The translations under genes and the position numbers were made by a program. Positions 4,971-33,156 of a stretch of DNA of 33,156 bases are shown piece by piece. Position 1 is the stretch's first letter. Every line of letters begins with the position of its first letter. The stretch spans positions 252 to 33,407 of the forward strand of contig CAZNJA010000012.1 of NCBI GenBank assembly GCA_964573245.1, written 5' to 3'. The stretch is from an uncultured bacterium (GTDB lineage: Bacteria > CAIJMQ01). The notes beneath the pieces were generated by a model, which saw nothing but the letters and a program-made list of their open reading frames with translations, was not told the origin of the DNA and did not search any database.

Positions 4971-4973
4971 AAT

Positions 4974-13095: not shown

Positions 13096-13962
13096 ATGAG
13101 CTATTTTGAAGTTTTGGGATTAGAAAAGGAGCCATTCTCTACAAGTCCTGATCCGGAGTTCTTTTATCTTTCTAAGGAGCATGAACGGGCTTTGACCAAT
13201 AGTTTGATAGAGCTAAGATTAAAAAGAGGATTAAGTGTAATTTTAGGAGATGTGGGGACTGGCAAAACTACTCTGTCCAGAAAACTTATACAAGAACTAA
13301 AAGAAAGAGAAGATTTTTGTTTCCATGTGATATTTGACCCCTCATTCGAAAGCGAGCAGTTGTTTTTAGAATACTTAGTTAGAAGTTTTAATTGTCCTAT
13401 CAATACTAACCGCCAACCAACTCTTCTTGACCTTAAAGAATCACTGGAAAGCTTTTTATTCCAAAAGGCAGTTTCTGAAGGTAAAATTATCGCGTTAATT
13501 GTGGACGAAGCTCAAAAACTTAACTCTGTTTCTTTGGAGGTCTTAAGAGTGCTTTTGAATTACGAGACAAACGAATTCAAACTTCTACAATTAATTCTAT
13601 TGGGACAAGAAGAATTTTATCATACTATAATGAACATTCCCAATTTTTTTGACCGTATAAGTTTTAAATTTACTTTAAACCCGCTTGATTACAAGGAAAC
13701 TAAAGAGATGATAGATTTTCGTCTTAAGCAGGCTGGTTATAAAGCCAGAAGACATCTTTTCTTGGAAGACGGTATAAAAAAAATCTATGAGTATACGAAC
13801 GGCTATCCCAGAAAAATAACAATGCTTTGCTATAAGGCTTTAAAGAAGTTAATTTTGGATAACAAATTAGCTGTAGACGGAAGAATGATTGATGAGATTA
13901 TAAAGGAAGAGGAAAAAACGGGATGGTACAAGACAGGATTACCCCTGAAAAGAAATTATTAG
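13096..13962 (+). CDS. ExeA/GspA-like AAA+ ATPase
   Basis: FEVLGLEKEPFSTSPDPEFFY, Walker A GDVGTGKT, Walker B LIVDEAQ, LILLGQ and GYPRKI. Confidence 0.9.
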   Translation: MSYFEVLGLEKEPFSTSPDPEFFYLSKEHERALTNSLIELRLKRGLSVILGDVGTGKTTLSRKLIQELKEREDFCFHVIFDPSFESEQLFLEYLVRSFNCPINTNRQPTLLDLKESLESFLFQKAVSEGKIIALIVDEAQKLNSVSLEVLRVLLNYETNEFKLLQLILLGQEEFYHTIMNIPNFFDRISFKFTLNPLDYKETKEMIDFRLKQAGYKARRHLFLEDGIKKIYEYTNGYPRKITMLCYKALKKLILDNKLAVDGRMIDEIIKEEEKTGWYKTGLPLKRNY

Positions 13963-14615
13963 ACTTAATTGAATCGCCCACCGGCCAAACATTCAAAGAA
14001 GTAAAAAAAAGACGTGGAAGAATCAGCTTTGTTTCTCCGGGCGCTTTAAAAGGAAGATTTTCCTTTTTTAGAAGATTTATAGCTAATAGTTTAGCAAGAC
14101 ATAAAATCGTTTTAGATATTAAAGAAGTCAATTTAATTCTTACTATTTGTATAATTGGTTTTGTAGTTTATTTATCTATGAGTTGGACGGATACTACCGG
14201 TAAATTAAATCAGATTCCCAATCTTGCTTTAGAACTGGCTCCCCAAAAGGATGTTAACTCGTTTTCAGCTGTTTCATTGCTGAAAGAGTTTTCTCATTAT
14301 TCCCAAATAGTAAATTCCAGAAATATATTTGAATTGGATTTGCAGAACGCTTCGCAAAACGAAGAACAAGCAGACGCAATAGAAGAGAAAGTAATTACGC
14401 CTAAAGATGAGTTGATGAAACTTATAGAATATTTCGTATTAGTCGGCGTGTCTTGGTCAGATGACCCGGTTGCAATGATAGAAAACACCGATGCTAAGAT
14501 GACTTATTTTGTCAGAAAAGGCGATGATATTAAAGACAGTATAAAAGTAAAAACGATTTTTATAGATAAAGTTATTTTAGAATATGAAGGAGCAGAGTTG
14601 GAGCTCAAACTCTGA
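13923..14615 (+). CDS. GspC/PilP-like single-pass membrane protein
   Basis: One TM helix, RNIF motif, then HR-like beta domain 'LVGVSWSDDPVAMIEN...YFVRKGDDI...VKTIFIDKVILEYEG'. Immediately precedes the secretin. Confidence 0.7.
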   Translation: MVQDRITPEKKLLDLIESPTGQTFKEVKKRRGRISFVSPGALKGRFSFFRRFIANSLARHKIVLDIKEVNLILTICIIGFVVYLSMSWTDTTGKLNQIPNLALELAPQKDVNSFSAVSLLKEFSHYSQIVNSRNIFELDLQNASQNEEQADAIEEKVITPKDELMKLIEYFVLVGVSWSDDPVAMIENTDAKMTYFVRKGDDIKDSIKVKTIFIDKVILEYEGAELELKL

Positions 14616-14661
14616 AAAACGATTATTGCTTTTGCAGTAGCGATGGTTTACAATTAAAAAA

Positions 14662-16263
14662 ATGTCGTATAAAGTCCGTATTTTAACTGTTCTATTTTTC
14701 CTTATTGTCTATCAACCCTGCCTTTTAAATGCTCAAAGATTATCCTTAGAATCTAAAGGGGAAATGTCAAAAAATGTCTCCTTAAATTTCCGAAATATAG
14801 ATGTGATAGAAGCTTTGCAGTATCTATCCGATGAAGGAGGATTTAATATAGCTTTTACTAAAGGAATTAGCGGCAGAGTTACTTTAAAAGCAGAAAAAGT
14901 AACTGTTAAAGATGCTTTTGATATTATTCTCCTTACAAGTAATTTGGCTTATGAAAAAAGGGGAAATATCTATAATGTAATGAGTGATAAGGAATATCAG
15001 GAGCTATATGGAGAAAAATTTGCAGATATAAGACAGATTAGAGTCTTGCGGTTGCAATACGCTATTCCCAAGAGAGCGTTTGATCTTTTAGATGCGTTAA
15101 AAAGCGATGTTGGGCGTATACTGGTTGACGAAGAAACAGGCACTGTCATGATTATGGACACTCCGGGAAAATTAGACCAAATGCAGAATGCTCTGGATTC
15201 CTTAGAGGAAAAAAGCGTTGTTGAGGTTTTCAATCTACAATATGCAAATGCTAAGGAAGTAGAGGAGCACCTTAAAATCCAACTTGAAGACAAGAAAGTA
15301 GGCTCAATTAGGGCGGATGAAAGAAATAATCAAATAATCATTCAGACATTACCCGGACGAATGGGGGAAATAAGAGAATTAGTCAAATCTCTGGACCAAA
15401 AGACAAAAGAGGTTTTAATAGAAGCAAAAATAATAAGAGTTGCTTTTTCTGATGATCTTGAAATTGGTATAAAGTGGGAATTTTTATTTGAGCAAATGAC
15501 AAAACATGGATTAGAATTTATCGGTTCACATGCTTATGACACTATGTATAGAACCGGGCAAACAATTATTGCAGACTATCCTCAAATAGAATCGGCAGCT
15601 AATTTACCTGCTGCTGCCAAACAACCTATTTTAGGGAAGGTTTTTTTGGGCGCGGTAGGTGAAGATAGCTTTGAAGCACTATTAACTTTTTTAAATACTA
15701 TAGTAGATGCTAGACTGTTGGCTAGTCCCAAAATAGCAGTAGTTAACAACCAAGAGGCAAAAATACATGTGGGCAGAAGAGAAGTGTATCTGGAAACAAC
15801 TACTACACAATCTGAATCTAATACTACCATCGTCGAAACTCCTAAATGGGTGGATACAGGTGTTCTGTTATCGGTAATCCCAAAAATTAACGATGAAGGT
15901 TATATCACTATGAATATAAAGCCCGAAATTACAAGTATTGCGCGTTGGTATAGAAGCCCTACCGGCAGAGAATATCCGGTAACGGAAGTATCTACTGCTG
16001 AAACAAAAGTTATGGTAAAAGACGGCACGACTATTATAATTGGGGGCTTAAGAAGAAAAGAAGAGATTCAAACTATTGAAAAAGTGCCCTTTCTTGGTGA
16101 CATATGGTTGCTGGGAAAACTTTTCCGTTCAGAAGAAACGACAACGATACAGTCTGAACTGATAGTATTTATTACTCCTCATATTATCAGCGGTAATCAA
16201 TTTATAAAAGGAGATGAGCACAAGGCAAGGGAACCAATTGCTCCATATAGAGAATATGAATAA
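14662..16263 (+). CDS. Secretin (GspD/PilQ family)
   Basis: Signal peptide, N0 'VSLNFRNIDV', two N-domains (LQYA...), 'EVLIEAKII', 'ASPKIAVVNNQEAKIHVG', 'VKDGTTIIIGGL', 'KVPFLGDIWLLGKLFR' and 'ELIVFITPHI'. Confidence 0.95.
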   Translation: MSYKVRILTVLFFLIVYQPCLLNAQRLSLESKGEMSKNVSLNFRNIDVIEALQYLSDEGGFNIAFTKGISGRVTLKAEKVTVKDAFDIILLTSNLAYEKRGNIYNVMSDKEYQELYGEKFADIRQIRVLRLQYAIPKRAFDLLDALKSDVGRILVDEETGTVMIMDTPGKLDQMQNALDSLEEKSVVEVFNLQYANAKEVEEHLKIQLEDKKVGSIRADERNNQIIIQTLPGRMGEIRELVKSLDQKTKEVLIEAKIIRVAFSDDLEIGIKWEFLFEQMTKHGLEFIGSHAYDTMYRTGQTIIADYPQIESAANLPAAAKQPILGKVFLGAVGEDSFEALLTFLNTIVDARLLASPKIAVVNNQEAKIHVGRREVYLETTTTQSESNTTIVETPKWVDTGVLLSVIPKINDEGYITMNIKPEITSIARWYRSPTGREYPVTEVSTAETKVMVKDGTTIIIGGLRRKEEIQTIEKVPFLGDIWLLGKLFRSEETTTIQSELIVFITPHIISGNQFIKGDEHKAREPIAPYREYE

Positions 16264-17383
16264 CGACGAAAAAGAAATTTTAGGTAAAAGCGGCAGAAAT
16301 TATAAAAAGATAATCGGGTTTATTATTCTGTTTATTTTGTTTGGCGCCGCATGCGCCGGGATAACTTATTATTTTTCTACCCAAAATATAACTCAAAAGA
16401 AAGATAAACAAATGCAAGGGTTTTCGCAGGAGGCCGAGAAGTTAAATAGTCTAAACAAATCCCTTGAAGAAAAATTTTCCAAATTATCCGCAGATTACGA
16501 CAGGATTTATAAGGACAGAGAAAATATAATTGAACAATCAAAAAGAATAATACAAGAAAAGAATGAGTTGTTAAATTTTAAGCAATCCTTTGAGGAAGCA
16601 ACTGAAGAGAAAGATAAACTTCTAAAAGAAAAACAACAACTTTCTAAAGAGGTTGAAACCCTTAAAGCACAGATGGGACAAGCCAAAGAAAAATATGGAA
16701 AAGAGATTACTGAAGCAGAGGAACAAATTAAAAACTATCAAGCGGATATTGTTGAGAAAGAAAAAGTTAATGAATCGTTGATTAAAAAGACTAACATTCG
16801 GAAATTAGAAACTACAATCAAAACATTAAAAAACGAAAACAGGGATTTGACTAAAAAGTTAAATGTAATTGGAGAAGAGAGTAATAGTCTAAGCAAGCAG
16901 TTAGAAAAACAAAAACAGGAATATAATAAAAATGAGTTAGCTTCGCAATCCCGTTATAATAAATTGCTTAATAAATACGAAGAGTTGGTGGCAAAACACG
17001 GTAAAACAGTTCAGGAGCAAGAAGCTTTGCAGGAAAGACTTGATGAATTTCCGCGTAAGATAGCTAATTTAGCGGGTGAAAATAAGAGACTCGTTAAAGA
17101 AACATCGGACATGCATTACAACTTAGGGCTCTTTTATTTCGAAAAGCAGGAATACAAAAGAGCAATTCCTGAGTTTGAGAGGGCTATAAAAATAAGTCCC
17201 CAGGATCCCGAGTCGTATTATTATTTAGGCTATATCTATGCAGAATATTTCATGCAACGAGAAAAAGCGATTAAATATTTTGATAAGTATCTGGAGTTAG
17301 CTCCGCGCGGAACTCATTCGGACTGGGTAAAGAGATATATATATAGTTGGCGAATTTGGGATAAAAAAGAAAACATAGAATAA
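16256..17383 (+). CDS. Membrane-anchored long coiled-coil protein with C-terminal TPRs
   Basis: ATG at 16256 overlaps the secretin stop (alternative ATG at 16214). N-terminal TM, ~230 aa K/E/Q-rich coiled coil, TPRs 'HYNLGLFYF...AIKISP...YYYLGYIY'. Confidence 0.8.
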   Translation: MNNDEKEILGKSGRNYKKIIGFIILFILFGAACAGITYYFSTQNITQKKDKQMQGFSQEAEKLNSLNKSLEEKFSKLSADYDRIYKDRENIIEQSKRIIQEKNELLNFKQSFEEATEEKDKLLKEKQQLSKEVETLKAQMGQAKEKYGKEITEAEEQIKNYQADIVEKEKVNESLIKKTNIRKLETTIKTLKNENRDLTKKLNVIGEESNSLSKQLEKQKQEYNKNELASQSRYNKLLNKYEELVAKHGKTVQEQEALQERLDEFPRKIANLAGENKRLVKETSDMHYNLGLFYFEKQEYKRAIPEFERAIKISPQDPESYYYLGYIYAEYFMQREKAIKYFDKYLELAPRGTHSDWVKRYIYSWRIWDKKENIE

Positions 17384-18094: not shown

Positions 18095-18096
18095 AA

Positions 18097-19584: not shown

Positions 19585-19603
19585 AAGTTAAAATACAAAA
19601 TAT

Positions 19604-19767: not shown

Positions 19768-19772
19768 AAACG

Positions 19773-20627
19773 ATGCCCTATCTTGCAGAAATCAAAAAAG
19801 AAATAGAGTTTTATAAAGATTTTTCTTCTCTCGTGGAAACACTTAAAAACTTAGCCCTTTTTCAATTCCATACGGCACAAAAAAAATTCAGGATCTTTGA
19901 GTTGTTCCCTAATGTAATAAAAAGTTTTTTTAATATACTTGATATTGAAAATATAAATCATCCATTTCTCCAAGATTCCGAGAAGGGAATTTTAGGTGTA
20001 GTAGCCATTACTTCAGATGCGGGGCTTTTAGGTGGGCTTAATAATCGAGTAATAAATATAGCAATGGATTTTTTAAGACAGAGAAAAGCCAAGATCATAG
20101 TTATTGGTAAACAAGGACAAAAGTATATCCAGGGACTGAATATACCGATTCTGACTCTACCTGGGGTTGAAGATAATCAAAGAGCTTTACTGGCTATGCA
20201 AATTAGGGATTATATTGTGGATGAGGTGGCTAAGGGTAATTTAAGCTCGGTGAAAATAGTATATCCGCAGGCATTTTCTCTTACTGCGCAAAAAATAGAA
20301 GTTCTGACTCTTTTACCATTGAATGAATGGCTCCCCAAGACCGCCGAAAATACAACTAAAAGCTCTTCAGAAATTCTATTTGAGTCTTCAATAACTGACA
20401 TCGTTGAATATTTGGTATATCTTTTTATTGGTCAGAAAATTTATGAAATTTTGGGCTTGAGCCGTCTTGCGGAATATGCCGCAAGATATATTCACTTAGA
20501 AGAAAGTACGGATAAAATTAAAGAAGATATTAAGAAATTGCAACTTAAATATTTCAAGATAAGACATGAAATAATTGATCAGCAGATGCGGGAACTATCA
20601 GCAGCAAAGGCTATAATGTCCAGATAA
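19773..20627 (+). CDS. atpG: Divergent F1-ATPase gamma subunit
   Basis: 'VVAITSDAGLLGGLN' and C-terminal helix 'EYAARYIHLEESTDKIKEDIKKLQLKYFKIRHEIIDQQMREL'. Lies between alpha and beta. Confidence 0.88.
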   Translation: MPYLAEIKKEIEFYKDFSSLVETLKNLALFQFHTAQKKFRIFELFPNVIKSFFNILDIENINHPFLQDSEKGILGVVAITSDAGLLGGLNNRVINIAMDFLRQRKAKIIVIGKQGQKYIQGLNIPILTLPGVEDNQRALLAMQIRDYIVDEVAKGNLSSVKIVYPQAFSLTAQKIEVLTLLPLNEWLPKTAENTTKSSSEILFESSITDIVEYLVYLFIGQKIYEILGLSRLAEYAARYIHLEESTDKIKEDIKKLQLKYFKIRHEIIDQQMRELSAAKAIMSR

Positions 20628-20645
20628 AAATTTAAAATTTAAAAT

Positions 20646-20711
20646 GCCCTTAGAGATTGCAGGGCAATCTCAAGGACTTTAGTCCCGGAAATCCTTTGGA
20701 TTTCTCGGGGC
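20646..20711 (+). repeat. Three-hairpin (four-way junction) REP-like element, copy A
   Basis: GAGATTGC-agg-GCAATCTC, GGACT-tt-AGTCC and GAAATCC-ttt-GGATTTC, closed by GCCC/GGGC. Confidence 0.8.
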
Positions 20712-20853
20712 AAAATGACAAATCAAAGTTATAAAAATTACAACAACCAAAATCACTTGTCGCTGGTTGGAATGTTAGTAAGTAGGTTATTGCGTATTGT
20801 TTTCAGTTTGTTTTATCGTAATTTATTTCTTTTTACATTTTAATGTGTAATTT

Positions 20854-20918
20854 CCCTCTGGAATTTCGTGGAAATTCCGAGGACTTAGTCCCTGAAATTG
20901 CAAGGCAATTTCTAGGGG
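20854..20918 (-). repeat. Three-hairpin REP-like element, copy B (inverted relative to A)
   Basis: Reverse complement reads CCCC-ta-GAAATTGC-ctt-GCAATTTC-ag-GGACT-a-AGTCC-tc-GGAATTTC-cac-GAAATTCC-aga-GGG. Confidence 0.8.
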
Positions 20919-20998
20919 TGATATTTGAACTTTGATATTTCATTTTACGGACAGTGAGGCATATTATAATTTGTACAAACATTACAGATAAGCCTTGA

Positions 20999-22399
<1,401 letters not shown>

Positions 22400-22477
22400 A
22401 AGACTTGCTTCTTCTGATAATTATGATAATATAGAATTAATTAATAATGCAGTTAAAAAAATAAAAGGAGATAGTAT

Positions 22478-23086
22478 ATGAAGAGGCTAATCGGATGGAT
22501 GGTAGTTTTGAGTCTTTTCGTTTTCACTGCAGCAGTAGTTGCAGCTGATAAAGATGTGGATGAACAAAAAAAACTCCTGGAAGCGGCGAAGATTGAGTTG
22601 AATAACATGGAGTGGAATATCAAATTGAGCCCCATAGGCGAAACAAATGCTCAAGGATATGAGGAAGATACGCTGCTTTTTATTGACAGCAAATTTTCGT
22701 CAGAAAAATTAGAATCCGAAAAGTTTCCCGTCTCAAACTATACAGTCTCGCTTAAGGGAGAAGACGTAATTATCTGGGAGACAATGCAGACAAGCGAAGA
22801 TGCAGGGGTTGCCTTCTGGCGTGGGGAATTAGAAAACGACGTAATGAGAGGAGTCTTGAGTGTGCATCCTGCCGAAAAAACATATATGGATTTTTCATTT
22901 TACAGTATCCAGAGAAAAGAGCTTGCAGCCAAGCCACCCAGAGCGGAGGAAATAAAGAAAGAGTCAACGCCGGAATCGGCAAAACCAGAAGAGATGAAAC
23001 AAGAAGCGACAGAAAAGATAGAAGAAGCTCCCAAGGAAGCAGAAGAAAAGCCTGCGCTACCTAAGAAAAAACATTGGTGGCAGTAA
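22478..23086 (+). CDS. Secreted hypothetical protein with 'WETMQ' beta-rich domain and E/K/P-rich tail
   Basis: AAGGAG RBS, Sec signal peptide (AVVA), and a domain clearly paralogous to the C-terminus of 23635-24918. Confidence 0.85.
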   Translation: MKRLIGWMVVLSLFVFTAAVVAADKDVDEQKKLLEAAKIELNNMEWNIKLSPIGETNAQGYEEDTLLFIDSKFSSEKLESEKFPVSNYTVSLKGEDVIIWETMQTSEDAGVAFWRGELENDVMRGVLSVHPAEKTYMDFSFYSIQRKELAAKPPRAEEIKKESTPESAKPEEMKQEATEKIEEAPKEAEEKPALPKKKHWWQ

Positions 23087-23473
23087 GAACAAGACCAATT
23101 GACAGTCTAAAAAAATAACATAAGAAGATTACCTGCAATTTGTATTGAACGTGGTAAGAGAATTTCTCGCCTTCCGTATGTGTAGACCAAAGACCCCTGT
23201 CCCCGTAGTCCACAACAAAAACTAACGGTGTTCAATTCTCACCCCAGACAAATAACGGTTATCAGTTGCGGTTATTTAAACAGGGAAATATAATAGGGGG
23301 AAAATCTGGTTTTATTATATTTACTTCCTAGAATATTGAGTCAATTAATCTTAATAAAATTTTTCCGTTTCTGAATATATTAGCTTTCTTAGCTATATGT
23401 CAGAGGATTAAAAGATTCTCTCTCCTCTCTCTTATTCTTCCCCCTTAATAAATTTTATCTCCGTTGTTTCCCC

Positions 23474-23501
23474 TTGACAATACAAACTCCCATGATAGAA
23501 T
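23474..23501 (+). promoter_or_regulatory. Sigma-70 promoter upstream of the RAYT-fusion/giant-gene unit
   Basis: TTGACA (23474-23479), 16 nt, TAGAAT (23496-23501) with a TG extension. Confidence 0.6.
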
Positions 23502-23509
23502 AAAACTAC

Positions 23510-23619
23510 AAGTGTCAGGCACCTGCTCTTTTAAAATAGGCATATTGAATTGCAAAAAGACGATTAAACGTAATCCGGGGACATCAAAACTTTTTTGACA
23601 GTGAAAGGTGCCAGGCATT
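23510..23619. repeat. Two short palindromes AAGTGTCAGGCACCT (23510-23524) and AGGTGCCAGGCATT (23606-23619)
   Basis: Related imperfect palindromes (core GTGYC-A-GGCAY) directly upstream of a RAYT-like gene; they resemble REP units. Confidence 0.55.
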
Positions 23620-23634
23620 AAAGGAAAAATTAAG

Positions 23635-24918
23635 ATGCCGAGATTACCGAGGATTCATGTAGAAGGAAGCTTATATTATATAACCTGCCAGAGCCATCAT
23701 TCCAACGAATTATTTAAAGATAGTAAAGATTATAATAAATATTTCAACTTGTTAGTCACATCTAAAAATAAACACCAATTTAAACTCTTCTCTTATTGTC
23801 TGTCTTCCGATAAAGTTTATCTCTTAATAGGTATAAACCCCGAAGGCTCAATTTCGGAGGTTATGTTTAACCTGAATTCTTTCTATACCAAATATTACAA
23901 TTCTCGTTATGGGAAAAAAGGACCGGTATTAGCAGGAAGGTTCAAAAGTAAATGGATAGAAAAGGGAACCTACCTTTTACCTTTAACAAGATATATACAT
24001 CGTATATCTATTAATAAAGATTGTGTTTACACAAGTTATCCTGCTTTTTTAGGAAAATCGTCTCCTATCCCAATAACAGACGAAATCCGAGAAATCATTT
24101 CCTGTTTACCTTCAAACACCGGCTATAAAGATTATGTGGAAAAAGCAACTCGTAGGGAACTGAAAGATTTAGAACAAAAATTAGCACGCAATAGATTTTT
24201 GGGCGCTAAAGAATTTGAACAGAAGGTTAAAACTACGCTCAAAGCTTATAAAGAAAATAAGAAAAATAAAGTTACAGCAGAAAAGGTAGAAGTAGTATTG
24301 CAAAAGCACATTCCTAAAAATTTGCTTTGGGGAAGTATAACGGTAACAACATTACTTTTGTTGCTTGTCGGCTATTTTTATAGTCGCCAACTCCTTTGGA
24401 AAGAAGAATTTAAGGTTGCTAAAGAAGAGTTTGAACAGAAGTTAACTAAGCTCGAACAAGCTCAAGTCCAACCCAATCTGCCCGCTACTGTCTCAATGGC
24501 GGGTGTGCAGGCAAAAGAAAAACCCTCTACACTTGGACATGTACTCCTGGGAAAAGAGAAAAGGAACATATCTGATCCCTTGGAGGGTGTAGTATGGGAG
24601 GTCAAATTGGGCCCTATTTCTTCCGAGGTTTCGCAAGAACCCCAAATAGATATATTAAAGTTTAAAGAAGGTAGATTTATCTCTAACATACTTACTAAAG
24701 AAGGATTTGGTCCCTCTAACTATTCCCTAATGCATAAAGAAAAAGGAGTCATTATCTGGGAGACTATGCAGAGTGGAGATGGAGGGGCAATAGCGAGCTG
24801 GCGTGGGAAATGGAACGGTGAAGTAATGAGAGGGGTTTTATCTCAGAAGTTTCCCGGAAAGGAAGCGAAGACTTTCTCGTTTATAGGATACATGAAGACA
24901 TCGACACAAAATGGATAA
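23635..24918 (+). CDS. Y1/RAYT transposase-like domain (HUH motif lost) fused to TM helix, coiled coil and extracytoplasmic WETMQ domain
   Basis: MPRLPRIHVEGSLYYIT, LFKDSKDY, LFSYCL, YTKYYNSRY...GRFKS, LTRYIH and YTSYPAF are RAYT hallmarks. The usual NHxH reads DKVY (23809-23820). TM at ~24322-24381. ATG at 23635 preferred over GTG at 23608. Confidence 0.85.
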   Translation: MPRLPRIHVEGSLYYITCQSHHSNELFKDSKDYNKYFNLLVTSKNKHQFKLFSYCLSSDKVYLLIGINPEGSISEVMFNLNSFYTKYYNSRYGKKGPVLAGRFKSKWIEKGTYLLPLTRYIHRISINKDCVYTSYPAFLGKSSPIPITDEIREIISCLPSNTGYKDYVEKATRRELKDLEQKLARNRFLGAKEFEQKVKTTLKAYKENKKNKVTAEKVEVVLQKHIPKNLLWGSITVTTLLLLLVGYFYSRQLLWKEEFKVAKEEFEQKLTKLEQAQVQPNLPATVSMAGVQAKEKPSTLGHVLLGKEKRNISDPLEGVVWEVKLGPISSEVSQEPQIDILKFKEGRFISNILTKEGFGPSNYSLMHKEKGVIIWETMQSGDGGAIASWRGKWNGEVMRGVLSQKFPGKEAKTFSFIGYMKTSTQNG

Positions 24919-24966
24919 GATTAAGGATAATATAATAATAGTAGAAAATACAATAAGGGGAACAAA

Positions 24967-25524
24967 ATGAGACAAAGAAAAGGGATAATTTTTATTCTCT
25001 TGCTCGTGAGTCTAATTTTTGAATTTCATATGCCGGAGGTTGCAAAAGCACAAGAAGAGAAAGTAGAGCAAGAAGTGAAGGAAATCCTGATAAAAGTTCA
25101 ACCCCGTATCATTGCTTTGCCGAAGAATGTAGAGATTTCTAAAGTTCATCTTTTAGCTGCAAGGATACGTTCAGTAGAATTAAGAGAGCTTTGCAATCAA
25201 TATAATGCTGTAAGTATTAAGAGATTATTTAAAATAAAAGAAGAATCTGATGGAATCAAACCGGTTAAAGGAAAGGACCCCCTGGTAAGTAAAGAAAAAG
25301 AAAAAACTAAAGAAAAAGTTGACCCCACAAAAGTCTTTACAAAAGCTAAACGGAAAGAACTATTGGCTCAAGACCAAGAAGTAATTGAAGTAAAAGATAC
25401 TTTTTTAATACAGTTTAAACCGAGTGACGATATTAATATGAAACAGGTAGCCAGTGAATATAGCGCGCTTTCAGTGGTATTGTTTGCCGAATATGTAGAG
25501 ATAGTAGGAGAGGAAGAAAAATAA
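24967..25524 (+). CDS. Secreted protein resembling a stand-alone subtilase (S8) prodomain
   Basis: Signal peptide (AKA), 'EILIKV', 'LRELCNQYNAVSIKRLF' and 'TFLIQF...DINMKQVASEYSALSVVLFAEY' match the S8 propeptide pattern; it stops with no catalytic domain. Confidence 0.6.
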   Translation: MRQRKGIIFILLLVSLIFEFHMPEVAKAQEEKVEQEVKEILIKVQPRIIALPKNVEISKVHLLAARIRSVELRELCNQYNAVSIKRLFKIKEESDGIKPVKGKDPLVSKEKEKTKEKVDPTKVFTKAKRKELLAQDQEVIEVKDTFLIQFKPSDDINMKQVASEYSALSVVLFAEYVEIVGEEEK

Positions 25525-25533
25525 CAAATCATT

Positions 25534-28500
25534 ATGGAAAGTAAAACTTTCACAAAAGAAAAATTCAAAGCAGGATGGTTTAAAGTTGGGCATATATTCC
25601 ATAGCCCTTTAGTTTTTATACTTGTATTTACAATCCTGTTTTTTGCTCTTTCTTCTCACACTGCATTTGCCCGTACTAAAGTCCAGTCAGGTTATACAGG
25701 TGAAATAACGGGCACAAGTCATACTATTGATATTGAGCCGGTGGATTTGGATAAAGCATTTATTATCTTTGATTTTCGCTGCACCACAACTTCTGATACT
25801 AGTCAGTATCCTTCAGCGCATGCCTGGGCGGCGAGATTTGTGGATAATGATACCATAGAATTTCACCGTTATTATGGTGCTAGTAGTGCAGGACACAGTA
25901 TTTCCTACTATGTGGTTGAGTCTGATGCTTATCAGGTTGAATATTTTGAGACGTCGTTAACTGCAGGTCAAATAACTAAAACCGTCAATTTATCTAACCT
26001 GACCCCTTCCGGTAAAGCCGTAGATTTTATACCGGGTCAAGCTTTCGTGGTTGCTCGTGTGACGGATTATAATAATACCAATGGAAACTCAATGAACGGC
26101 TGGTATACCAATTTTGAGCTGACATATAATACCTCTCCTACTCATGACCAGATATTTTTGCAGCGCCGAACGTCTGAATCCGGTGACACTTCGGCATGTA
26201 ATATCTGGGGGTTTGTAATTCAACTTTATGACGATTCAGAAGTTTATTATACTGCCGGCGGGTTTAATTTTGTTTCCGGCGGAGAATTACAGCAGTTCAG
26301 CGATATCCGTGATAGCTCCGGCGGCCTCTCATCACTTGACCGTTCAAAAGCATTTATGATTTTTCAGATGGATGTCAATAATTCAGCATTGACTGCCGAG
26401 ACAAGAGGCGCGCTTGCTTCAAGCACGCAGATATGCTGGAACAGGCGAAGTGCATCATCCACATATACCAATCCCTGCCATTTATTTTGGTATATTATCG
26501 AGCAGGGGACGTTAGGTGAAGCCGAGTCAGGAACACGTTTTATTCCATCAGGTACATTATCGGAAACACATACCTTTTCAAGCCCGCTTGATGTAAACTT
26601 AAGTTTTTGTCGCAGTGCCCAGGATTCAACCGGTCCGGGTACTCTTTATTACAGGGTGCGCCATACAACGCAGGTTATAAACGGCGGCGCTCAATTGGAG
26701 TTACGCAGAGGCGAGTCAGGCCAAAATGCCTTCTGTGACTTTTTTGCCGTTAAGCTGGAACCGATGATATTGTTCTCACCTAATGATGGAGGAACTTTTT
26801 ATGCCAATAGCGACTACGATATAACTTGGTATGCTCCGGAATGTCTTGGACCTTATAACGCTTCAAATAATCCCCCTTATGATAATGATGTAGAGATATT
26901 ATTGTCCAATGACGGCGGGACCAACTGGATACCGGTTATGACAACCGATAACGATGAATTTGAGACAATCACTTTTCCTTCAGGGCCAGGTACTACCGGC
27001 AACACAATGCGCTTTAAGGTAAGGGACCCAGATTGGAATAAAGTTGCCGGAGTAGAAATTGGCTCAAGGACTTCCGCAGGCGACTATTACAGCAGTGATA
27101 TTTCCGATATTGATTTAGAGATAGTTCCGGTTATTGATATTGTTTCTCCTGACGGAGGTGAAGTGTATGCTTATGAAGAGGATATTACTTTTAAGTGGAA
27201 TTATTACGGAGATTCGACTTCCAAGACCGTAAAAATAATGTATGATTCAAGCGGCGGCGGCGGCGGATATCCCGTAACCATTGCAACCGGGGTTACAGCA
27301 GCCTCAGGCGCCCCTGACCCGGTAAACGGAAACGGCAGCTATGCTTACGGAGCGAGTAACTGGACAAGCACGCCTTTTCCATTATCAAACACCTTAAAGA
27401 TAAGGGTTGAAGATGAAGCCGACAATCGGGTGAAAGGGAGTTCAGAATTAAACTTCACCGTAACAGGTGAGATTATTTTAGAAGCTCCTAACGGCGGACA
27501 GATGTGGAAAATAGGAGAGACAGAAGATATTACTTGGACTGCCGCGGGAGCAGATTTTATGACCAATGGAGTTAATATTCTTGTATCACGTAACTTAGGT
27601 GGAAGTTGGAGTAATATTGAAAATGGTGTAGTTGCTGACAGTTCACCATATCATTGGACGGTAGAAGCGCCTGCGTCAACCGAATGTTTAATAAAAGTAC
27701 AATCAGCTGATTTTCCGTTAATGGTGGATGAATCAGATGATATTTTTGAGATACGGCAGGTCATTACAGTCACAGAACCGAGTACACCGGGTGAGGTTTG
27801 GAAGGTCGGCGAATATAAAGATATAGAATGGGAGTTGCAGGGTACAATTGACAAAGTAGAAATTCACTATAAGAAAGGAGTAGGCGGTGCATGGATACCG
27901 ATAACAGAATCAGAATATCCGACCGGGTATCCTGCAGGCAGCCCTTACAAGTATACTTGGCAGGTCCCTAACGACATATATGATGAGGTGTATATCAGAG
28001 TACGGGATTTTGATAACAATGTGATTGAATATATTACCCCTTATATTTCCATCAAAGGTAAAATAAGCGTAGATGCTCCTAACGGAGGAGAGGAATATAC
28101 CGTAGGACAAACCGATGTAGTTATTACCTGGTCCTCAACGGGGACTATGACCGGAGAATATGTCAGGGTTTGGTTTGCTAAAGATGGAGTTGATTATGCT
28201 TATATGGATGTTACGGCTGCGATGGGATATCCATCAGGTAAGGATGTTGACAGTGGGAGTTTAGCATGGAATCCTGTTCCTGATGAGATTACCGAGACAG
28301 GCAAGATAAAGGTTGAGTTAATCGGTGATGAAAGCAGTGTTTATGATGTCTCAAATGATACCTTCTCAATTCAGGGTGGTTTAACTCTTACCTATCCTAA
28401 TGGCGGCGTAACCCTTTATGTTGGCGCTACAGATAGTTCACGCACTATTACCTGGGACGTAGATGGAAGCTTAGTTGGGCAACAGGTTACACTTACCTAT

Positions 28501-31500
28501 ACTATAGGCGGTAGCGGGGATAAGGCTATTGGTTCAACGGGTGCGATGGATGGGAGCTTTGACTGGGGTGCTTCAGCTGGTATTCCAGATGACATCGGAG
28601 ATAATCTAATTGTTAAGGTTGCCCTTTCCAGTAAGCCTGCCACTGTCTTTGATGTTTCTGACAGTGCAAATAAGATAAGAGGAAAGATTGCCAGTATCTC
28701 CAGCCCCACATCAGTTGATGAATGGTATGTGGATTCGGATATGTACAATATAGCCTGGACCATGGAGAACGATGCTGTAAGTATGGGAAATCTGGAGATT
28801 CGCTATTCAACCAGCGGCGCTTCATTCCCTGCTATTCAGGTTGTTGAAACGAATGTCAGTCCATTGGCTTCTCCCGTATCATGGCAGGTTCCTGATGAAG
28901 CGGGTATCATTACCACTACGGCACAGATAAAGATATTTGCTATTAATTATGCCTCCGACATACTCAAAATATCCGATGAATTTGAAATTAAAGGTAAAAT
29001 TACTCTTACACGGCCAGACCATGGCACGGATTATACATGGTATGTAGGGACTGATGAGAATATAGAATGGACGACTAAAGGCATAACCGATATTGATAAA
29101 GTAAATGTATATTGGGATGAAGGTACCGAAACATATACCAATCAGATTGCCGATTCTATAGCCAATGTCGAGGGGTTCCTCTGGCAGAATATACCCGCAG
29201 CAGCTATGGGAAATACAACACGGGTAAAGGTTGCAGGTTATGGCGATTACAGTGATGTATTGGATACCTCTCCGCAGGATGCTAAATACATTACGGTAAA
29301 AGGGAGAGTAGTAGTAGATTCGCCTAACGGTGACGAAGAATGGGTTTCCGGAACTGAGTATCCGATAACTTGGACACCTTACGGAGATATCGGAAATGTG
29401 CACCTGGAATACCACGACGGCATAGGATGGCATGATATAACCAACCCGGTAACAGGTGTTCCCGCCACAAAGTTGAGTGAGCCCTGGATGATTCCCGCTG
29501 ATGCTGCACCTGGAAGTGCTTATAAGATAAAGATTACGGCTTTAGCTCCCTATGATGATGTTACGGATGAATCTGATAACCTATTTACAGTCAGGGGTTC
29601 TCTTGACCTGACCTATCCTGACGGAGGGGCAGCGCAGGATTTTAACGTAAATGATATAGAGGAGATTCAATGGACTAAGACAGGAGCTATAGGAAATATA
29701 GAATTAAGATATTCTATAACCGGCGGTGAACCATATTTACTTGCAAATCAGATTGCTACTAATGTTTCTCCTACTAACCAGCCTGAAGGCGAAAAATATG
29801 GCGCAGGTGTATATTATTATCCTTGGTCAATACCTGCACCGGCCTTAAGCGATACTGTAAAGATCAAGATATTCCTTATATCGGATGAAGATAATGTTTA
29901 TGATGAATCTGTTAGCACCTTCAAGGTTAAAGGAAGCTTGCAGCTTACCGGCGAGGCTAACGGCGAAGGAGCTCCAACTTGGAAGGTGGGGGAAAATAAG
30001 ACAATCACCTGGGATGTAGTAGGGGCTTTAGGGAATATAGATATATATTATGCCAAAGACGGAATTCAATTCCTTGATAGTGTTGCCCTTGACGTTCCCT
30101 GCGGCACAGGAGGTAATGGCTCGTATTTATGGGAACCCATTCCTAATGATGTTATTGATGGCGCTAGAAACGAAAACATAAAACTTAAGATTACTACGCC
30201 TGCAGGCGATGTAAGTAGCACCTCTCTTAACCCGATTATTATTCAGGGACAAATTATAGTAGCCCAGCCGGACCCGGTCTTATATGTTGATGACCCCGAT
30301 AATCCAAACGATTATTACACTATAACCTGGACTACCAAGGGTATAGTCGGCCAAGTAAAATTGTCATACGATACAGACGGGAATGGTACTTATAGTAATT
30401 TTATAGAACAGATTGATAATGACGGCGATTATGATTGGGATATACCTAATTCAATTGGAAGTCAAGTCAAGTTTAAGGTTGAAGACTCTGTTTATAACCA
30501 GGTTTTTGGGATTACAACCGATTTTGAGATAAAAGGACAGATAAAAGTCACCGCTCCCACATCAGCCATTAAAGACGCCAGTGCATGGATTGTAGATAAT
30601 GCTGCATCCGGGCTTCCCAGCCAGCAGCTTATAGAATGGACCAATTACGGTGATTTGGGAGATGACGGCGGTAGTAATTATTATGTAGTGATAAAACATG
30701 CTGCAAACGGTGTGACTTTTGATAGCGAAATAACAAATGTTGCCAGTGGCAATAATGGCCCGCAGACCTTTAACTGGACCATCCCGGATAGTATCGCGAC
30801 TATTAATAGGATAAAGGTAATTGATAAAAACGACAGCAGTGTTTATGACACATCGGATGAGTTTGAGATTAAAGGTAAGATAGTAGTAACCGAGCCGGGC
30901 CCGGCAATAGGGGATGACTATTTTATAGGAGGTACTCCTATAGATATAACCTGGGACTATGCCGGTACCTTAGGCAATATAGATATGTTCATCAGTTATG
31001 ATGACGGAGTAAATTGGGAAGTGGATCCGTTTGCTACTGTTGATGTAGGGTATTCTCAGCCTTATCAGCTTTCTGTGCCCGATAATCCCACTACTCAAGG
31101 AAAGATTAAACTTGAACAGACAAATGACAGAACCTATGTCTACTCAGAATCTAAAAGGTTTGATATAAAAGGTTCGGTCTTTATGGATTCGCCTACTTCA
31201 TTGACCGAATGGACGGTTGATGCTGCCGATAATAGAATAGAGTGGCATACTACGGGTTCAATAGCAAACGTAACCCTTGATTTGGATACCACCAGCGGAG
31301 GCGGCGGTTACTCAATACCTATTGTTGCTTCAACACCGAATGACGGCGAATATATTTGGAGCATACCTGTCGGACAGTATGTAGCTGTAACCTCAGGTAA
31401 TCTAACATCAGACCAGTGCAAGGTGCGAATCAGGGATGCCAGCGACCCTACAGTGGAGGATTTTTCCGATGATTTCAAGATAAAACCGATGTTAGAAATA

Positions 31501-33156
31501 ACCGCTCCTGTAGGAGGAGAGAAGTGGTATCGCGGGACCAGCGAGTATATTACCTGGAATGCACCTAAAGGAAAGGTAGATAATTTAAAGATAGAATATT
31601 CATTAGATGCAGGTTCAACCTGGGAGACGCCGGCTGTTACGGAATCGGTTCCCTCCTCTGCCGGACAATTTCTCTGGCTTATACCGAATACACCGAATGA
31701 TGATACGGTGGTAAAGATATCTAAAGTAGGGGATGCGGATATTTCTGATGTTTCACCGGTTTGGTTCTCATTGTTTGCTGATGTTGAATTGTTACAACCC
31801 AACGGAGGTGTGGACCTTCCTATCGGAAGCGATTATCTGATAACGTGGAATCCTATAGGTTCTCTTACGGAATGCAGGATAATGTATGCTACGGTTGAAA
31901 ATCCAACTGCAGGGGATTGGAAAGTCTGTAAAGATGCCAGTGAGCAATTGGCTGATATTCCCGACCCGGTAACAACAACTCAGTTTAGCTGGAGAATACC
32001 CGATGAACCCTCTACACACGTGTTGGTTAAGATTTATGAGAAGTCACATGCTGATGATGTGCTGGACATATCCGTAGCTGATAACGCTATTATAGGAAGT
32101 ATCACCGTGGACCATCCCACAAACGGCGACGTAATGATAGCCGAGAAACCATATTCGATTCAATACACAAAAACAGGTTCTTTGACCAACTTTAAAATTG
32201 ATTACCATGACGGAAGCCAATGGTATCCTATAGTTGCCGATACCACTGATTATCCTTCATATACCTGGGCTTCTGTTGATGATAATATTGGCTCTACTAT
32301 TAAAGTAAAAGTAACAGATGTTAACAATACCACAGTTTACGGCGAATCCAGTGCAGATAACATAATAAAAGGAGAGATAGACCTAACCGCTCCCAACGGC
32401 TATGAAACATTAGTTGTAGGCGTACCGTTTGATATTACCTGGGATAAATGGGGTAATATCGGTAATATAAAAATAGAATACTCAACAGATGATTTTGCAG
32501 ACGATATACGCACTATAGTTGATAGTTACGATGCAAATAGCAGTCCTCGCTCTTGGACTCCGGGAATAGATGACATTACCAATGCGGATAATGTCAAAGT
32601 GAGAGTTACCAGTATCGGCGGAATTCCGGTTACGGATGAATCACTAAATCCGTTCAAGATTCAAGGCAAGATAACCAACGTCCAACCCAGTGGCAGCGCG
32701 GTTATATGGAAGAAAGACGAATCTAAGAATGTTACCTGGGACCAGGATGGTAATATTGATAGTGTAGATATTCTATATAAGATTATTAGCACCGATACTT
32801 TCAATAAGACCCTTGTTACTAACCATACCGGCCACGCTGACGGCCCCAATTCAGCAGGGATTACAGTGCCCGATGAAAACTCGGAAGACTGCTGGGTACA
32901 GGTATTGGACCACGACAATTCCGATGTTAAAGCCTCTTCTGTTGCGGCATTCTCCATCAGGCCTATTATAACGGTTTCAGAACCTGTGCTTGACAGTAAT
33001 ATCGTTGTTGACTCTAGTAATACTGATGCTATTGTTTGGAGCTTAAACGGTTCTACTAAGGTGACACTCGTAGATATTCTATATAGTACAAACGGTATTG
33101 GCGGGCCTTTTGACAAAACCATTGACACAGGAGTAGATGCGACCTTAGGTAAATAC
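25534..33156 (+). CDS. Giant secreted repeat protein (putative adhesin), >2541 aa, 3'-truncated by window edge
   Basis: Manual frame +1 translation shows no stop from ATG 25534 to the end. Begins MESKTFTKEKFKAGWFKVGHIFHSPLVFILVFTILFFALSSHTAFA|RTKVQSG (long signal peptide). Absent from the ORF track, presumably because no stop codon is present. Confidence 0.95.
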   Translation, partial: MESKTFTKEKFKAGWFKVGHIFHSPLVFILVFTILFFALSSHTAFARTKVQSGYTGEITGTSHTIDIEPVDLDKAFIIFDFRCTTTSDTSQYPSAHAWAARFVDNDTIEFHRYYGASSAGHSISYYVVESDAYQVEYFETSLTAGQITKTVNLSNLTPSGKAVDFIPGQAFVVARVTDYNNTNGNSMNGWYTNFELTYNTSPTHDQIFLQRRTSESGDTSACNIWGFVIQLYDDSEVYYTAGGFNFVSGGELQQFSDIRDSSGGLSSLDRSKAFMIFQMDVNNSALTAETRGALASSTQICWNRRSASSTYTNPCHLFWYIIEQGTLGEAESGTRFIPSGTLSETHTFSSPLDVNLSFCRSAQDSTGPGTLYYRVRHTTQVINGGAQLELRRGESGQNAFCDFFAVKLEPMILFSPNDGGTFYANSDYDITWYAPECLGPYNASNNPPYDNDVEILLSNDGGTNWIPVMTTDNDEFETITFPSGPGTTGNTMRFKVRDPDWNKVAGVEIGSRTSAGDYYSSDISDIDLEIVPVIDIVSPDGGEVYAYEEDITFKWNYYGDSTSKTVKIMYDSSGGGGGYPVTIATGVTAASGAPDPVNGNGSYAYGASNWTSTPFPLSNTLKIRVEDEADNRVKGSSELNFTVTGEIILEAPNGGQMWKIGETEDITWTAAGADFMTNGVNILVSRNLGGSWSNIENGVVADSSPYHWTVEAPASTECLIKVQSADFPLMVDESDDIFEIRQVITVTEPSTPGEVWKVGEYKDIEWELQGTIDKVEIHYKKGVGGAWIPITESEYPTGYPAGSPYKYTWQVPNDIYDEVYIRVRDFDNNVIEYITPYISIKGKISVDAPNGGEEYTVGQTDVVITWSSTGTMTGEYVRVWFAKDGVDYAYMDVTAAMGYPSGKDVDSGSLAWNPVPDEITETGKIKVELIGDESSVYDVSNDTFSIQGGLTLTYPNGGVTLYVGATDSSRTITWDVDGSLVGQQVTLTYTIGGSGDKAIGSTGAMDGSFDWGASAGIPDDIGDNLIVKVALSSKPATVFDVSDSANKIRGKIASISSPTSVDEWYVDSDMYNIAWTMENDAVSMGNLEIRYSTSGASFPAIQVVETNVSPLASPVSWQVPDEAGIITTTAQIKIFAINYASDILKISDEFEIKGKITLTRPDHGTDYTWYVGTDENIEWTTKGITDIDKVNVYWDEGTETYTNQIADSIANVEGFLWQNIPAAAMGNTTRVKVAGYGDYSDVLDTSPQDAKYITVKGRVVVDSPNGDEEWVSGTEYPITWTPYGDIGNVHLEYHDGIGWHDITNPVTGVPATKLSEPWMIPADAAPGSAYKIKITALAPYDDVTDESDNLFTVRGSLDLTYPDGGAAQDFNVNDIEEIQWTKTGAIGNIELRYSITGGEPYLLANQIATNVSPTNQPEGEKYGAGVYYYPWSIPAPALSDTVKIKIFLISDEDNVYDESVSTFKVKGSLQLTGEANGEGAPTWKVGENKTITWDVVGALGNIDIYYAKDGIQFLDSVALDVPCGTGGNGSYLWEPIPNDVIDGARNENIKLKITTPAGDVSSTSLNPIIIQGQIIVAQPDPVLYVDDPDNPNDYYTITWTTKGIVGQVKLSYDTDGNGTYSNFIEQIDNDGDYDWDIPNSIGSQVKFKVEDSVYNQVFGITTDFEIKGQIKVTAPTSAIKDASAWIVDNAASGLPSQQLIEWTNYGDLGDDGGSNYYVVIKHAANGVTFDSEITNVASGNNGPQTFNWTIPDSIATINRIKVIDKNDSSVYDTSDEFEIKGKIVVTEPGPAIGDDYFIGGTPIDITWDYAGTLGNIDMFISYDDGVNWEVDPFATVDVGYSQPYQLSVPDNPTTQGKIKLEQTNDRTYVYSESKRFDIKGSVFMDSPTSLTEWTVDAADNRIEWHTTGSIANVTLDLDTTSGGGGYSIPIVASTPNDGEYIWSIPVGQYVAVTSGNLTSDQCKVRIRDASDPTVEDFSDDFKIKPMLEITAPVGGEKWYRGTSEYITWNAPKGKVDNLKIEYSLDAGSTWETPAVTESVPSSAGQFLWLIPNTPNDDTVVKISKVGDADISDVSPVWFSLFADVELLQPNGGVDLPIGSDYLITWNPIGSLTECRIMYATVENPTAGDWKVCKDASEQLADIPDPVTTTQFSWRIPDEPSTHVLVKIYEKSHADDVLDISVADNAIIGSITVDHPTNGDVMIAEKPYSIQYTKTGSLTNFKIDYHDGSQWYPIVADTTDYPSYTWASVDDNIGSTIKVKVTDVNNTTVYGESSADNIIKGEIDLTAPNGYETLVVGVPFDITWDKWGNIGNIKIEYSTDDFADDIRTIVDSYDANSSPRSWTPGIDDITNADNVKVRVTSIGGIPVTDESLNPFKIQGKITNVQPSGSAVIWKKDESKNVTWDQDGNIDSVDILYKIISTDTFNKTLVTNHTGHADGPNSAGITVPDENSEDCWVQVLDHDNSDVKASSVAAFSIRPIITVSEPVLDSNIVVDSSNTDAIVWSLNGSTKVTLVDILYSTNGIGGPFDKTIDTGVDATLGKY
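25678..26757 (+). repeat. Four ~80-100 aa H-type-lectin-like beta-sandwich repeats (protein level)
   Basis: Units VQSG..VDLDKAFII..IEFHR..SYYVVE; FIPGQAFVV..IFLQRR..WGFVIQ; LDRSKAFMI..ICWNRR..FWYIIE; AESG..LDVNLSF..LELRRG..DFFAVK. Confidence 0.55.
26761..33156 (+). repeat. Twenty complete plus one partial ~100 aa Ig-like repeats (Kre9/KNH-N, 'Ser-Thr-rich GPI-anchored' type)
   Basis: Recurring hxhxxP(N/D)GGExWxxGxxxxI(T/E)W...hxhxYSxDGGxxW...YxWxhP...hKhKh...DxSDxxFxI(K/Q)G, e.g. APNGGQMWKIGETEDITW (27484), APNGGEEYTVG (28075), SPNGDEEWVSG (29320), APVGGEKWYRG (31504). Confidence 0.85.

Follow-up and report, generated by a model that had tools for sequence, protein, structure and literature searches.

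The DNA considered here, referred to as the window, is a stretch of 33,156 nucleotides (nt) from an uncultured bacterium (contig CAZNJA010000012.1 of assembly GCA_964573245.1), and the gene in question encodes P0001, a protein in which a Y1 domain of the transposase type is followed by a transmembrane (TM) helix and a beta-barrel. Its leader carries two copies of a short palindromic element, written AAA-GTGCCAGGCAC, and the gene is the first of three cistrons, of which the third encodes a giant protein (Table 1). A preliminary description of the locus had read P0001 as a domesticated transposase of the RAYT type (REP-associated tyrosine transposase, where REP stands for repetitive extragenic palindrome) with a dead catalytic motif and a fused membrane part, and the reading frame does run intact through the Y1 domain, the TM helix and the C-terminal domain. 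The ATG at 23635 is taken as the real start, since the residues MPRLPR encoded there are the N-terminus conserved across the relatives in alignment A1; an alternative GTG start at 23608 is unlikely, as it falls within a leader motif and MPRLPR marks the ATG. P0001 is not the transposase of a mobile element, and the best explanation of its family is a previously undescribed group of bitopic inner-membrane proteins of Omnitrophota and Ratteibacteria-like bacteria.

Table 1. Features of the P0001 locus: positions in the window, strand, and the basis of each assignment or a remark on it.
Feature	Positions	Strand	Basis or remark
Type II secretion-like cluster: AAA_22 ATPase, GspC-like, secretin, TPR protein	13096..17383	+	Pfam
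Secreted barrel paralogue P0002, 202 aa	22478..23086	+	BLASTP to P0001 barrel; hydrophobic N-terminus
Sigma-70-like promoter (predicted), TTGACA-16-TG-n-TAGAAT	23474..23501	+	Consensus match 11/12, extended -10 TG
Leader element copy 1, GTGTCAGGCAC	23512..23522	+	Family consensus AAA-GTGCCAGGCAC; about 10 nt past the -10 box
Leader element copy 2, GTGCCAGGCAT, preceded by AAAG	23608..23618	+	Family consensus AAA-GTGCCAGGCAC
Gene for membrane-anchored Y1 protein P0001	23635..24918	+	Open frame, 427 aa plus stop
RAYT-like Y1 domain, cytoplasmic (predicted), residues 1-140	23635..24054	+	Pfam Y1_Tnp, Foldseek
K60-V61-Y62 at the HUH position (within YCLSSDKVYL)	23812..23820	+	Alignment A1, hmmalign
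Y120-I-H122 of the Tyr motif RYIH	23992..24000	+	Alignments including 4er8
Helical linker, residues 141-228, motif LG(S/A)xxF	24055..24318	+	Alignment, AlphaFold2
Single TM helix, residues 230-250	24322..24384	+	Kyte-Doolittle 1.92 over 19 residues
Helix to residue 277, then low-confidence spacer 278-311	24385..24567	+	AlphaFold2; spacer pLDDT below 50
Extracytoplasmic 8-stranded beta-barrel ('WETMQ' domain), residues 312-420 (predicted)	24568..24894	+	Model pLDDT 92.5
Small protein P0003, 185 aa, hydrophobic N-terminus, second cistron	24967..25524	+	Cluster c18
Giant protein gene, >2541 aa, third cistron	25534..33156	+	Runs off the window end

The RAYT-like origin that had been proposed for the N-terminal domain is borne out by both profile and structure searches. 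P0001 matches the Pfam Y1_Tnp hidden Markov model (PF01797) at 30.2 bits (cutoff 23) over residues 20-94, and scores 33.1 bits against the NCBIfam RAYT equivalog REP_Tyr_transpos (NF047646), under its cutoff of 80. An AlphaFold2 (AF2) model built on 31 homologues, with a mean predicted local distance difference test (pLDDT) score of 83, assigns residues 12-127 to a beta/alpha core, the stretch up to residue 223 to helices, 228-277 to one long helix, 278-311 to a spacer and 320-420 to a beta domain. Its top Foldseek match in the Protein Data Bank is the Escherichia coli RAYT-REP complex (4er8_A; E 7e-6, 150 columns, TM-score 0.68 normalised to the target), followed by the IS608, ISDra2 and IS200 transposases, with 4er8, 2a6o and 2vjv lying between E 7e-6 and 1e-4; the fold is thus common to P0001 and RAYT, and the helix of the Tyr motif resembles the Y-x-x-x-N-P type of RAYT, with the departure at +4 that is given below. 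No C-terminal helix-turn-helix extension (Bac_DnaA_C, HTH_23 or HTH_28) was matched in P0001 by Pfam at E values up to 1. In the linker that follows the core, G190 and F194 are invariant in the family, and the post-core region of soluble paralogues gives a weak match to the linker profile. The TM helix, which had also been claimed, is one segment, and because this single hydrophobic segment has a K-rich N-terminal flank (7 K/R against 3 D/E), the prediction places the Y1 part in the cytoplasm and the C-terminal domain outside, in the periplasm, to which the existence of secreted paralogues of the C domain adds support. Beyond the membrane a coiled coil had been proposed; AF2 places a single continuous helix there, which may be such a coil, and the domain named after its WETMQ motif stands as a confidently modelled barrel, with 42% identity to P0002 over 101 residues (BLASTP, E 1e-20). 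A homodimer prediction with two copies of P0001 and alignment A1 gave scores of 0.02 and 0.01, where the mark is 0.42, and speaks neither for nor against a dimer.

At the position of the metal-binding HUH (His-hydrophobic-His) motif the family consensus is H-L-H, whereas P0001 has K-V-Y, so that the reported loss of this motif holds, as does the retention of the Tyr motif. The histidine of the latter, H122, is invariant across the family, and Y120 is kept in P0001, but the +4 position from it is Ile, where N or Q is expected and most relatives have Asn. A second supposed loss, YYI in place of YHI, is present and is not specific to this gene, since the membrane family as a whole, HUH-intact members included, has the consensus YY(V/I)T, and YH(V/I) is what the soluble paralogues have. 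Among the 63 members with full architecture (see below), HUH and Tyr are both kept in 37, HUH alone is lost in 12 (the window among these), both are lost in nine and Tyr alone in five; the 19 barrel-less members divide into nine that keep both, six without HUH and four without both, and HUH and/or Tyr are therefore gone in 36 of the 82 members in all. On a maximum-likelihood tree of 87 sequences, these states have changed at least five times for HUH and at least ten times for Tyr. The preliminary description had held that close homologues with an intact HUH motif would speak against its reading; they are absent from the window's own well-supported clade, where HUH is missing in 7/7 members, and the sister lineages are HUH-dead too, while in the family at large they are common, as the counts above indicate. 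The loss of HUH in many lineages thus means that catalysis is dispensable there, and a family-wide death of catalysis is not established.

The HUH-dead domain has been kept under constraint. Within the HUH-dead clade the N domain is the best-conserved region (mean identity 77%), ahead of the barrel (65%), the linker (57%), the TM region (50%) and the spacer, which is the least conserved (29%). The ratio of nonsynonymous to synonymous substitution (dN/dS) between the window and its closest relative, the locus L003, is roughly 0.136 over the whole gene and 0.066 in the N domain, and purifying selection on the gene, for which the preliminary description had proposed a test, is supported by these sequence comparisons. 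In alignment A1 the invariant or near-invariant residues are S74, M77, L80, N81, Y84, T85, K86, N89 and R102, and this stretch corresponds in the alignment to the helix and strand of RAYT that bear R78, K82 and R97, with R102 opposite R97. Passages of Messing et al. (PMC3479197) describe R78, K82 and R97 of RAYT as contacting the REP hairpin. As the conserved residues of P0001 align with this hairpin-contacting stretch, they point to a nucleic-acid-binding surface that has been retained in its Y1 domain.

A protein search of a collection of 5.8 billion proteins gave 36 database matches, 31 of which cover at least 95% of the query; their source names include Ratteibacteria and Omnitrophota, and they are annotated as 'transposase' or 'REP element-mobilizing transposase RayT'. 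In a scan of species-representative genomes 81 relatives were confirmed, of which the best 80 loci were taken, making 81 sources together with the window. Profiles of the N domain, linker and barrel identified 82 open reading frames (ORFs) of the family in these sources, mostly in metagenome-assembled genomes of Omnitrophota, 63 of them with full architecture and 19 barrel-less. A TM segment is present in 80/82 (63/63 full and 17/19 barrel-less), and the remaining two end at contig edges. Conservation of the fusion in 63 members means that it is not a chimera, a possibility that had been raised at the outset, and the junction of Y1 domain, TM helix and barrel is also bridged without difference by contigs of two other sequencing runs, which may belong to one sampling campaign or have the source sample among them. 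Literature searches found no description of this protein family or of its leader element.

In its own genome (1.46 Mb, 93% complete) the P0001 gene is present in a single copy. Among nine genomes of the window's phylum, the full-length gene was found in G000 and G009, and G009 was the only one of five relatives searched to hold a homologue of the giant protein. The gene and the giant homologue are thus present together in G000 and G009, while G006, G007, G008 and G012 yielded neither of them; G007 (92% complete) and G008 (96% complete) belong to the same genus as the window. In a sample of 201 Omnitrophota genomes the family profile was matched in 143, but only 21 had one match spanning at least 410 of the 416 profile positions, and most of the remaining matches are N-domain-only ORFs of 160-350 residues; the membrane form is therefore widespread and far from universal. 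Three genomes of this sample (G047, G103 and G125) have full-span matches with one or two in-frame stops, which might reflect decayed genes or faulty assembly.

Soluble RAYT-like paralogues of 221-313 residues, with HUH, Tyr and YH(V/I) all intact, occur in G008 (L084-L087) and in G012 (L088 and L089), and a further match in G008 carries four stop codons. One soluble relative from the same genus combines Y1_Tnp with a Bac_DnaA_C-like tail, at a sub-threshold 30.3 bits (cutoff 31.5). The membrane family probably arose from such soluble proteins through replacement of the tail. A comparable class has been described by Quentin et al. (2018; PMC6006769), in whose classification of Y1 proteins, as given in parts of that paper, the TnpA_Y1 subclass 2.1, or TIRYT-like proteins, likewise combines a Y1 core with a C-terminal extension and has no REPs nearby; the tail in that subclass is a helix-turn-helix, whereas in the P0001 family it is a TM helix with or without the barrel. 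The word 'transmembrane' is absent from the main text of that paper, the supplements of which might list such forms.

The leader element was recognised by comparison with relatives. At copy 1, an exact 12-mer is shared with L003 and with L044 in the same relative place, and the consensus GTGCCAGGCAC was derived by relaxing the 12-mer conserved with L003, which was found again upstream in L044. When 1.05 Mb was searched with this consensus, 141 of 169 strand-hits lay no more than 260 nt upstream of a family gene, in 61 loci, and most of the others were at a slightly greater distance on that side or immediately in front of the small or the giant gene. With two mismatches allowed and a limit of 300 nt, the element precedes 71 of the 82 genes, 53 of them with at least two copies. 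The form GTGYCWGGCAY has three matches in the 1.46-Mb genome, of which two are the window copies, and the third (contig C78) was rejected as a site, since it lies antisense within a sigma-70-type coding region and is taken as a chance match. Across five Omnitrophota genomes (11.8 Mb), all 8/8 matches of the 12-mer version fall in this locus, with one or two per genome, and those genomes nonetheless hold further Y1 paralogues; no leader element was found near the six soluble paralogues examined. The element is thus essentially unique to this locus genome-wide, and it is also directional, two points that are new here, with a 5' AAA at 101-111 of 125 sites and a weak 3' flank. C5 is invariant (126/126), the centre base is A in 117/126 sites and the loop bases are kept.

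As for its position relative to the gene, 24 of 71 genes have a distance of 9-15 nt between the end of the proximal copy and the start codon. Copy 2 of the window stops 4 nt short of the GGA of the ribosome-binding site, and 16 nt separate it from the ATG. HUH-dead and HUH-intact members have the element alike. It differs from the nearby palindromes that had been named as targets in the preliminary description, and these fare poorly: the inverted repeats in 22300-25700 are AT-rich and imperfect (74-92% complementary), and a REP-like reading was rejected as there is no GC-rich REP-like hairpin among them. A sigma-54 promoter reading of the element (TGGCAC on the reverse strand) was likewise discarded, because there is no TTGC at the required spacing and most copies are on the wrong strand. 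A literature search by the element sequence returned only unrelated eukaryotic papers.

Upstream of the element, most relatives carry a riboswitch. A c-di-GMP-I riboswitch was found with Rfam directly upstream in 7/8 loci tested, and with a covariance model built for this analysis (R1) in 71/81 sources (L004, L008, L017, L024, L033, L036, L077 and 64 more), always on the strand of the gene. In these leaders the riboswitch and the terminator-like hairpin that follows it lie some 100-300 nt ahead of the family gene, and the leader element comes next. In the window, no GEMM-I riboswitch was detected with model R1 or with Rfam, whether the gathering threshold was applied or E values up to 5 were admitted; L003 likewise lacks it, and both carry the promoter-like block in its place. 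The family extends to a Ratteibacteria-like lineage that is without the riboswitch and has retained the element pair, which is new here. Other sources without a riboswitch match are L018, L023, L025, L027 and L070, together with three loci truncated 5' of the gene. The promoter-like block is conserved in L003, and counts in a scan for promoters and terminators around the gene were within the expectation from shuffled sequence. Across the window, no Rfam family reached the gathering threshold, and two rows at chance level appeared in 23050-23660 at E up to 5. For a genome of 1.46 Mb, the intergenic stretch before the promoter (23087-23470) is long, at about 390 nt; Rfam gives no match in it, and its alignment with L003 is poor.

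Downstream, the family gene is the constant first gene of an operon. The order of family gene, small secreted protein and giant protein is fixed across 80 species-level genomes, and the three cistrons are separated by median gaps of -1 and +1 nt. In 63 loci the family gene is followed by a homologue of the giant protein (cluster 1). A giant ORF occurs within the next four same-strand ORFs in 69/80 loci; among the loci that extend 1.5 kb or more past the family gene the figure is 67/68, the sole exception having it as the fifth ORF. The tie to the giant gene suggested by the preliminary description is thereby supported. Upstream, the AAA_22, GspC-like, secretin and TPR genes are found in many loci, and the commonest order is MerR-like, AAA_22, GspC-like, secretin, TPR, secreted barrel, sometimes a peptidyl-prolyl isomerase (PPIase)-like gene, and then the family gene; in an alternative order, a glycan-synthesis cluster lies directly 5' of the family gene and the giant gene is still downstream. 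Stand-alone barrel genes are present in 32 loci. A conserved secretion-like locus upstream of Omnitrophota giant genes has been described in passages of West-Roberts et al. (2023; 10.1101/2023.11.21.568195), where the giant gene follows a type II secretion-like cluster as it does here; the window itself is without the riboswitch that leads such loci. The word 'transposase' is absent from the main text of that study, and section 11 and other passages of it mention neither this gene nor the leader element.

Taken together, P0001 may be a domesticated, non-catalytic and membrane-tethered nucleic-acid binder that acts on the leader of its own operon, a reading to which about an even chance is given. 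Because the metal-binding HUH motif is gone, the Y1 domain of P0001 most likely acts by binding of nucleic acid only, and we infer that it binds the directional element AAA-GTGCCAGGCAC in the leader of its own operon, whose gene-proximal copy lies right beside the ribosome-binding site. Binding would set expression of the operon according to what is sensed outside by the barrel, which would be a small beta-barrel of the ligand-binding type facing the periplasm. Through its membrane anchor, the protein would also keep the bound 5' end of the giant-gene message, or the DNA, close to the secretion machinery at the membrane.

Such a layout has precedents in part. ToxR and CadC are bitopic one-component regulators, and ToxS is the periplasmic partner of ToxR. 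The predicted layout of P0001 is that of ToxR/CadC, with a cytoplasmic domain for nucleic-acid binding, one TM helix and a periplasmic domain; candidate sites likewise lie at the promoter or leader of the family's own gene, with spacings near multiples of 10.5 nt, and the pair of P0001 and the adjoining secreted barrel paralogue P0002 may be likened, by analogy, to ToxR and ToxS. The DNA-binding domain of ToxR and CadC is a winged helix of the OmpR/PhoB type, in contrast to the Y1/HUH fold of P0001, in which binding and ToxR-like signalling are putative. In the case of RAYT, passages of PMC3479197 describe a protein that requires a hairpin plus a 5' tetranucleotide for binding and is flanked by its own sites, and the directional palindromic element before the P0001 gene could be an analogous arrangement. 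RAYT differs in that REPs are dispersed genome-wide, while the P0001 element has three matches in its own genome, and one or two in each of five others, and the gene is in single copy; P0001, unlike RAYT, has KVY for HUH, a TM helix and a periplasmic barrel, and is encoded by the first gene of a giant-protein operon.

Several observations weigh against this reading or leave it less secure. HUH and Tyr are both retained in 46/82 members, and cleavage might therefore still be part of the ancestral function, or of that of the majority; the dN/dS comparison is rough because dS (1.2-1.7) is near saturation. The element always travels with the operon leader, and co-occurrence of this kind fits binding by the protein as well as another role in the leader and cannot separate the two; in L009, L027 and L032 it lies after the family gene, before the small or the giant gene. 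The evidence on the form of the element, whether RNA, single-stranded DNA or duplex, conflicts. A sense-strand hairpin is favoured by the substitutions at paired inner positions, where C-to-T changes (C4 to T 11, C9 to T 11) number 22 as opposed to five G-to-A changes (G8 to A 1, G3 to A 4), and by the directionality of the element; changes that disrupt an inner pair are, however, nearly as frequent (19) as wobble changes (22), and no compensatory double changes were seen. The spacing of the copies points to duplex DNA instead, with values of 20-23 (11 cases), 30-33 (25), 41-43 (4), and then 53, 63, 71-72 and 96-97 nt, which give a best period of 10.5 with a phase near zero, although related loci are not independent and four cases of 47 nt misfit. 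When the leader is folded as RNA, the two copies pair into one stem with a central A-A mismatch, and as folding alone pairs them, a device made of RNA only is possible.

A variant of the preferred reading, which is thought unlikely, would make the transposase-derived domain a membrane tether that grips the AAA-GTGCCAGGCAC hairpins of its own long message, or single-stranded DNA in the transcription bubble. P0001 would be translated first and inserted in the membrane, the giant protein would then be made beside the export machine, and the periplasmic barrel would tune the grip on the nucleic acid. 

P0001 could instead be a structural or assembly part of the type II secretion-like machine, with the Y1 fold serving as a protein-protein module that has no role with nucleic acid. 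P0001 is bitopic and has a long helix past the TM segment, in which we presume a likeness to bitopic proteins of the GspL/PilN/PilO type; the AAA_22/GspC-like/secretin/TPR cluster is a constant neighbour in many loci, the paralogous secreted barrel often adjoins (32 loci), and a secretion locus upstream of giant genes is also reported in the passages of West-Roberts et al. (10.1101/2023.11.21.568195) cited above. In many loci, however, the glycan-synthesis cluster replaces the secretion cluster and the giant gene still follows, the best-conserved residues of the family are those of the part that contacts DNA in RAYT according to the passages of Messing et al., and the leader has a dedicated cis-element. 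These points make a role confined to secretion rather improbable.

It is also doubtful, though conceivable, that AAA-GTGCCAGGCAC is an RNA-only device or the site of another factor, and that the Y1 protein has an unrelated function in sensing or scaffolding; in one form of this idea, a stem in the leader would control translation start or messenger RNA (mRNA) stability. In the window, copy 2 folds with the AUGCC at the start codon, and since ATG-CCN (Met-Pro) is conserved in the family, the 5' half of the element, GUGCC, resembles the start region; pairing of copy 2 with the start codon may thus form an RNA switch on translation start. The sequence of the element is, however, kept beyond what pairing needs across proteins that are only 30% identical, with C5 the same in 126/126, a plain stem requires neither self-complementary arms nor a conserved 5' AAA, and the window and L003, in which the riboswitch was not found, have nevertheless kept the element. 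The part of copy 2 that complements the start-codon AUGCC is its 3' half, GGCAU (23608-23640 of the window).

That the family is an active HUH nuclease, which nicks DNA or joins it covalently at the element, and that the window copy is a decaying remnant, is very improbable. It would agree with the 46/82 members that keep both motifs and with the soluble same-genus paralogues in which HUH and Tyr are intact, but the HUH-dead state is shared by the whole clade of the window (7/7) and by sister lineages, the N domain is 72-90% conserved in that clade with an intact frame and the low dN/dS of 0.066, and Tyr has been lost at least ten times elsewhere with the gene retained. An ordinary IS200/RAYT transposase, with a chance fusion or misassembly, finds its support in the database labels 'transposase' and 'REP element-mobilizing transposase RayT' and is hardly credible, given that the gene is in single copy at a fixed synteny in 80 species-level genomes, where IS200/IS605 elements have several copies at variable locations, that there are no dispersed repeats, that HUH is lost and that contigs of other runs bridge the junction.

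The label matters beyond this gene, since the constant first gene of giant-gene operons is publicly called a 'transposase' and can distort tallies of the mobile elements that surround giant genes. Such a count of flanking transposase genes has been made in a 2026 preprint (10.64898/2026.06.07.730766), passages of which read them as mobile-element flanks and name IS110, IS5 and IS1634, with RAYT not mentioned there. The family bears on the puzzle of how tiny cells of the Omnitrophota type express and export proteins that are thousands, or even tens of thousands, of residues long, and it offers a clear natural case of an HUH/Y1 domain retained for a role other than cutting. As the candidate target is short and locus-specific, an in vitro test is feasible even though the hosts are uncultured. 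Tethering of the message or gene to the membrane, if it occurs, would be a new bacterial route of mRNA or gene localisation and a new type of one-component signalling built on the HUH fold.

The neighbouring genes of the window show some further particulars. P0002 ends in a low-complexity tail of 60 residues rich in K, E and P (22910-23086), which is missing from the fused barrel of P0001. The second cistron is of type c18 in seven loci, including the window, and of type c2 in 48 loci, among them the closest relative L003; homology between c2 and c18 is unsupported (hhalign probability 11.6%), and both have hydrophobic N-termini. No tRNA genes were found in the window. Between the TPR gene and the barrel gene lies an operon for an F-type ATP synthase (17387-22399), with genes for a b/delta fusion and for the alpha, gamma and beta subunits, an insertion that occurs in no Omnitrophota locus and is shared with L003. 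No promoter of the sigma-54 type is readable in the leader of the family gene in the window. Far upstream, at 3297-6383, the window encodes a sensor histidine kinase with HAMP, HisKA and HATPase_c domains and a sigma-54-dependent response regulator.

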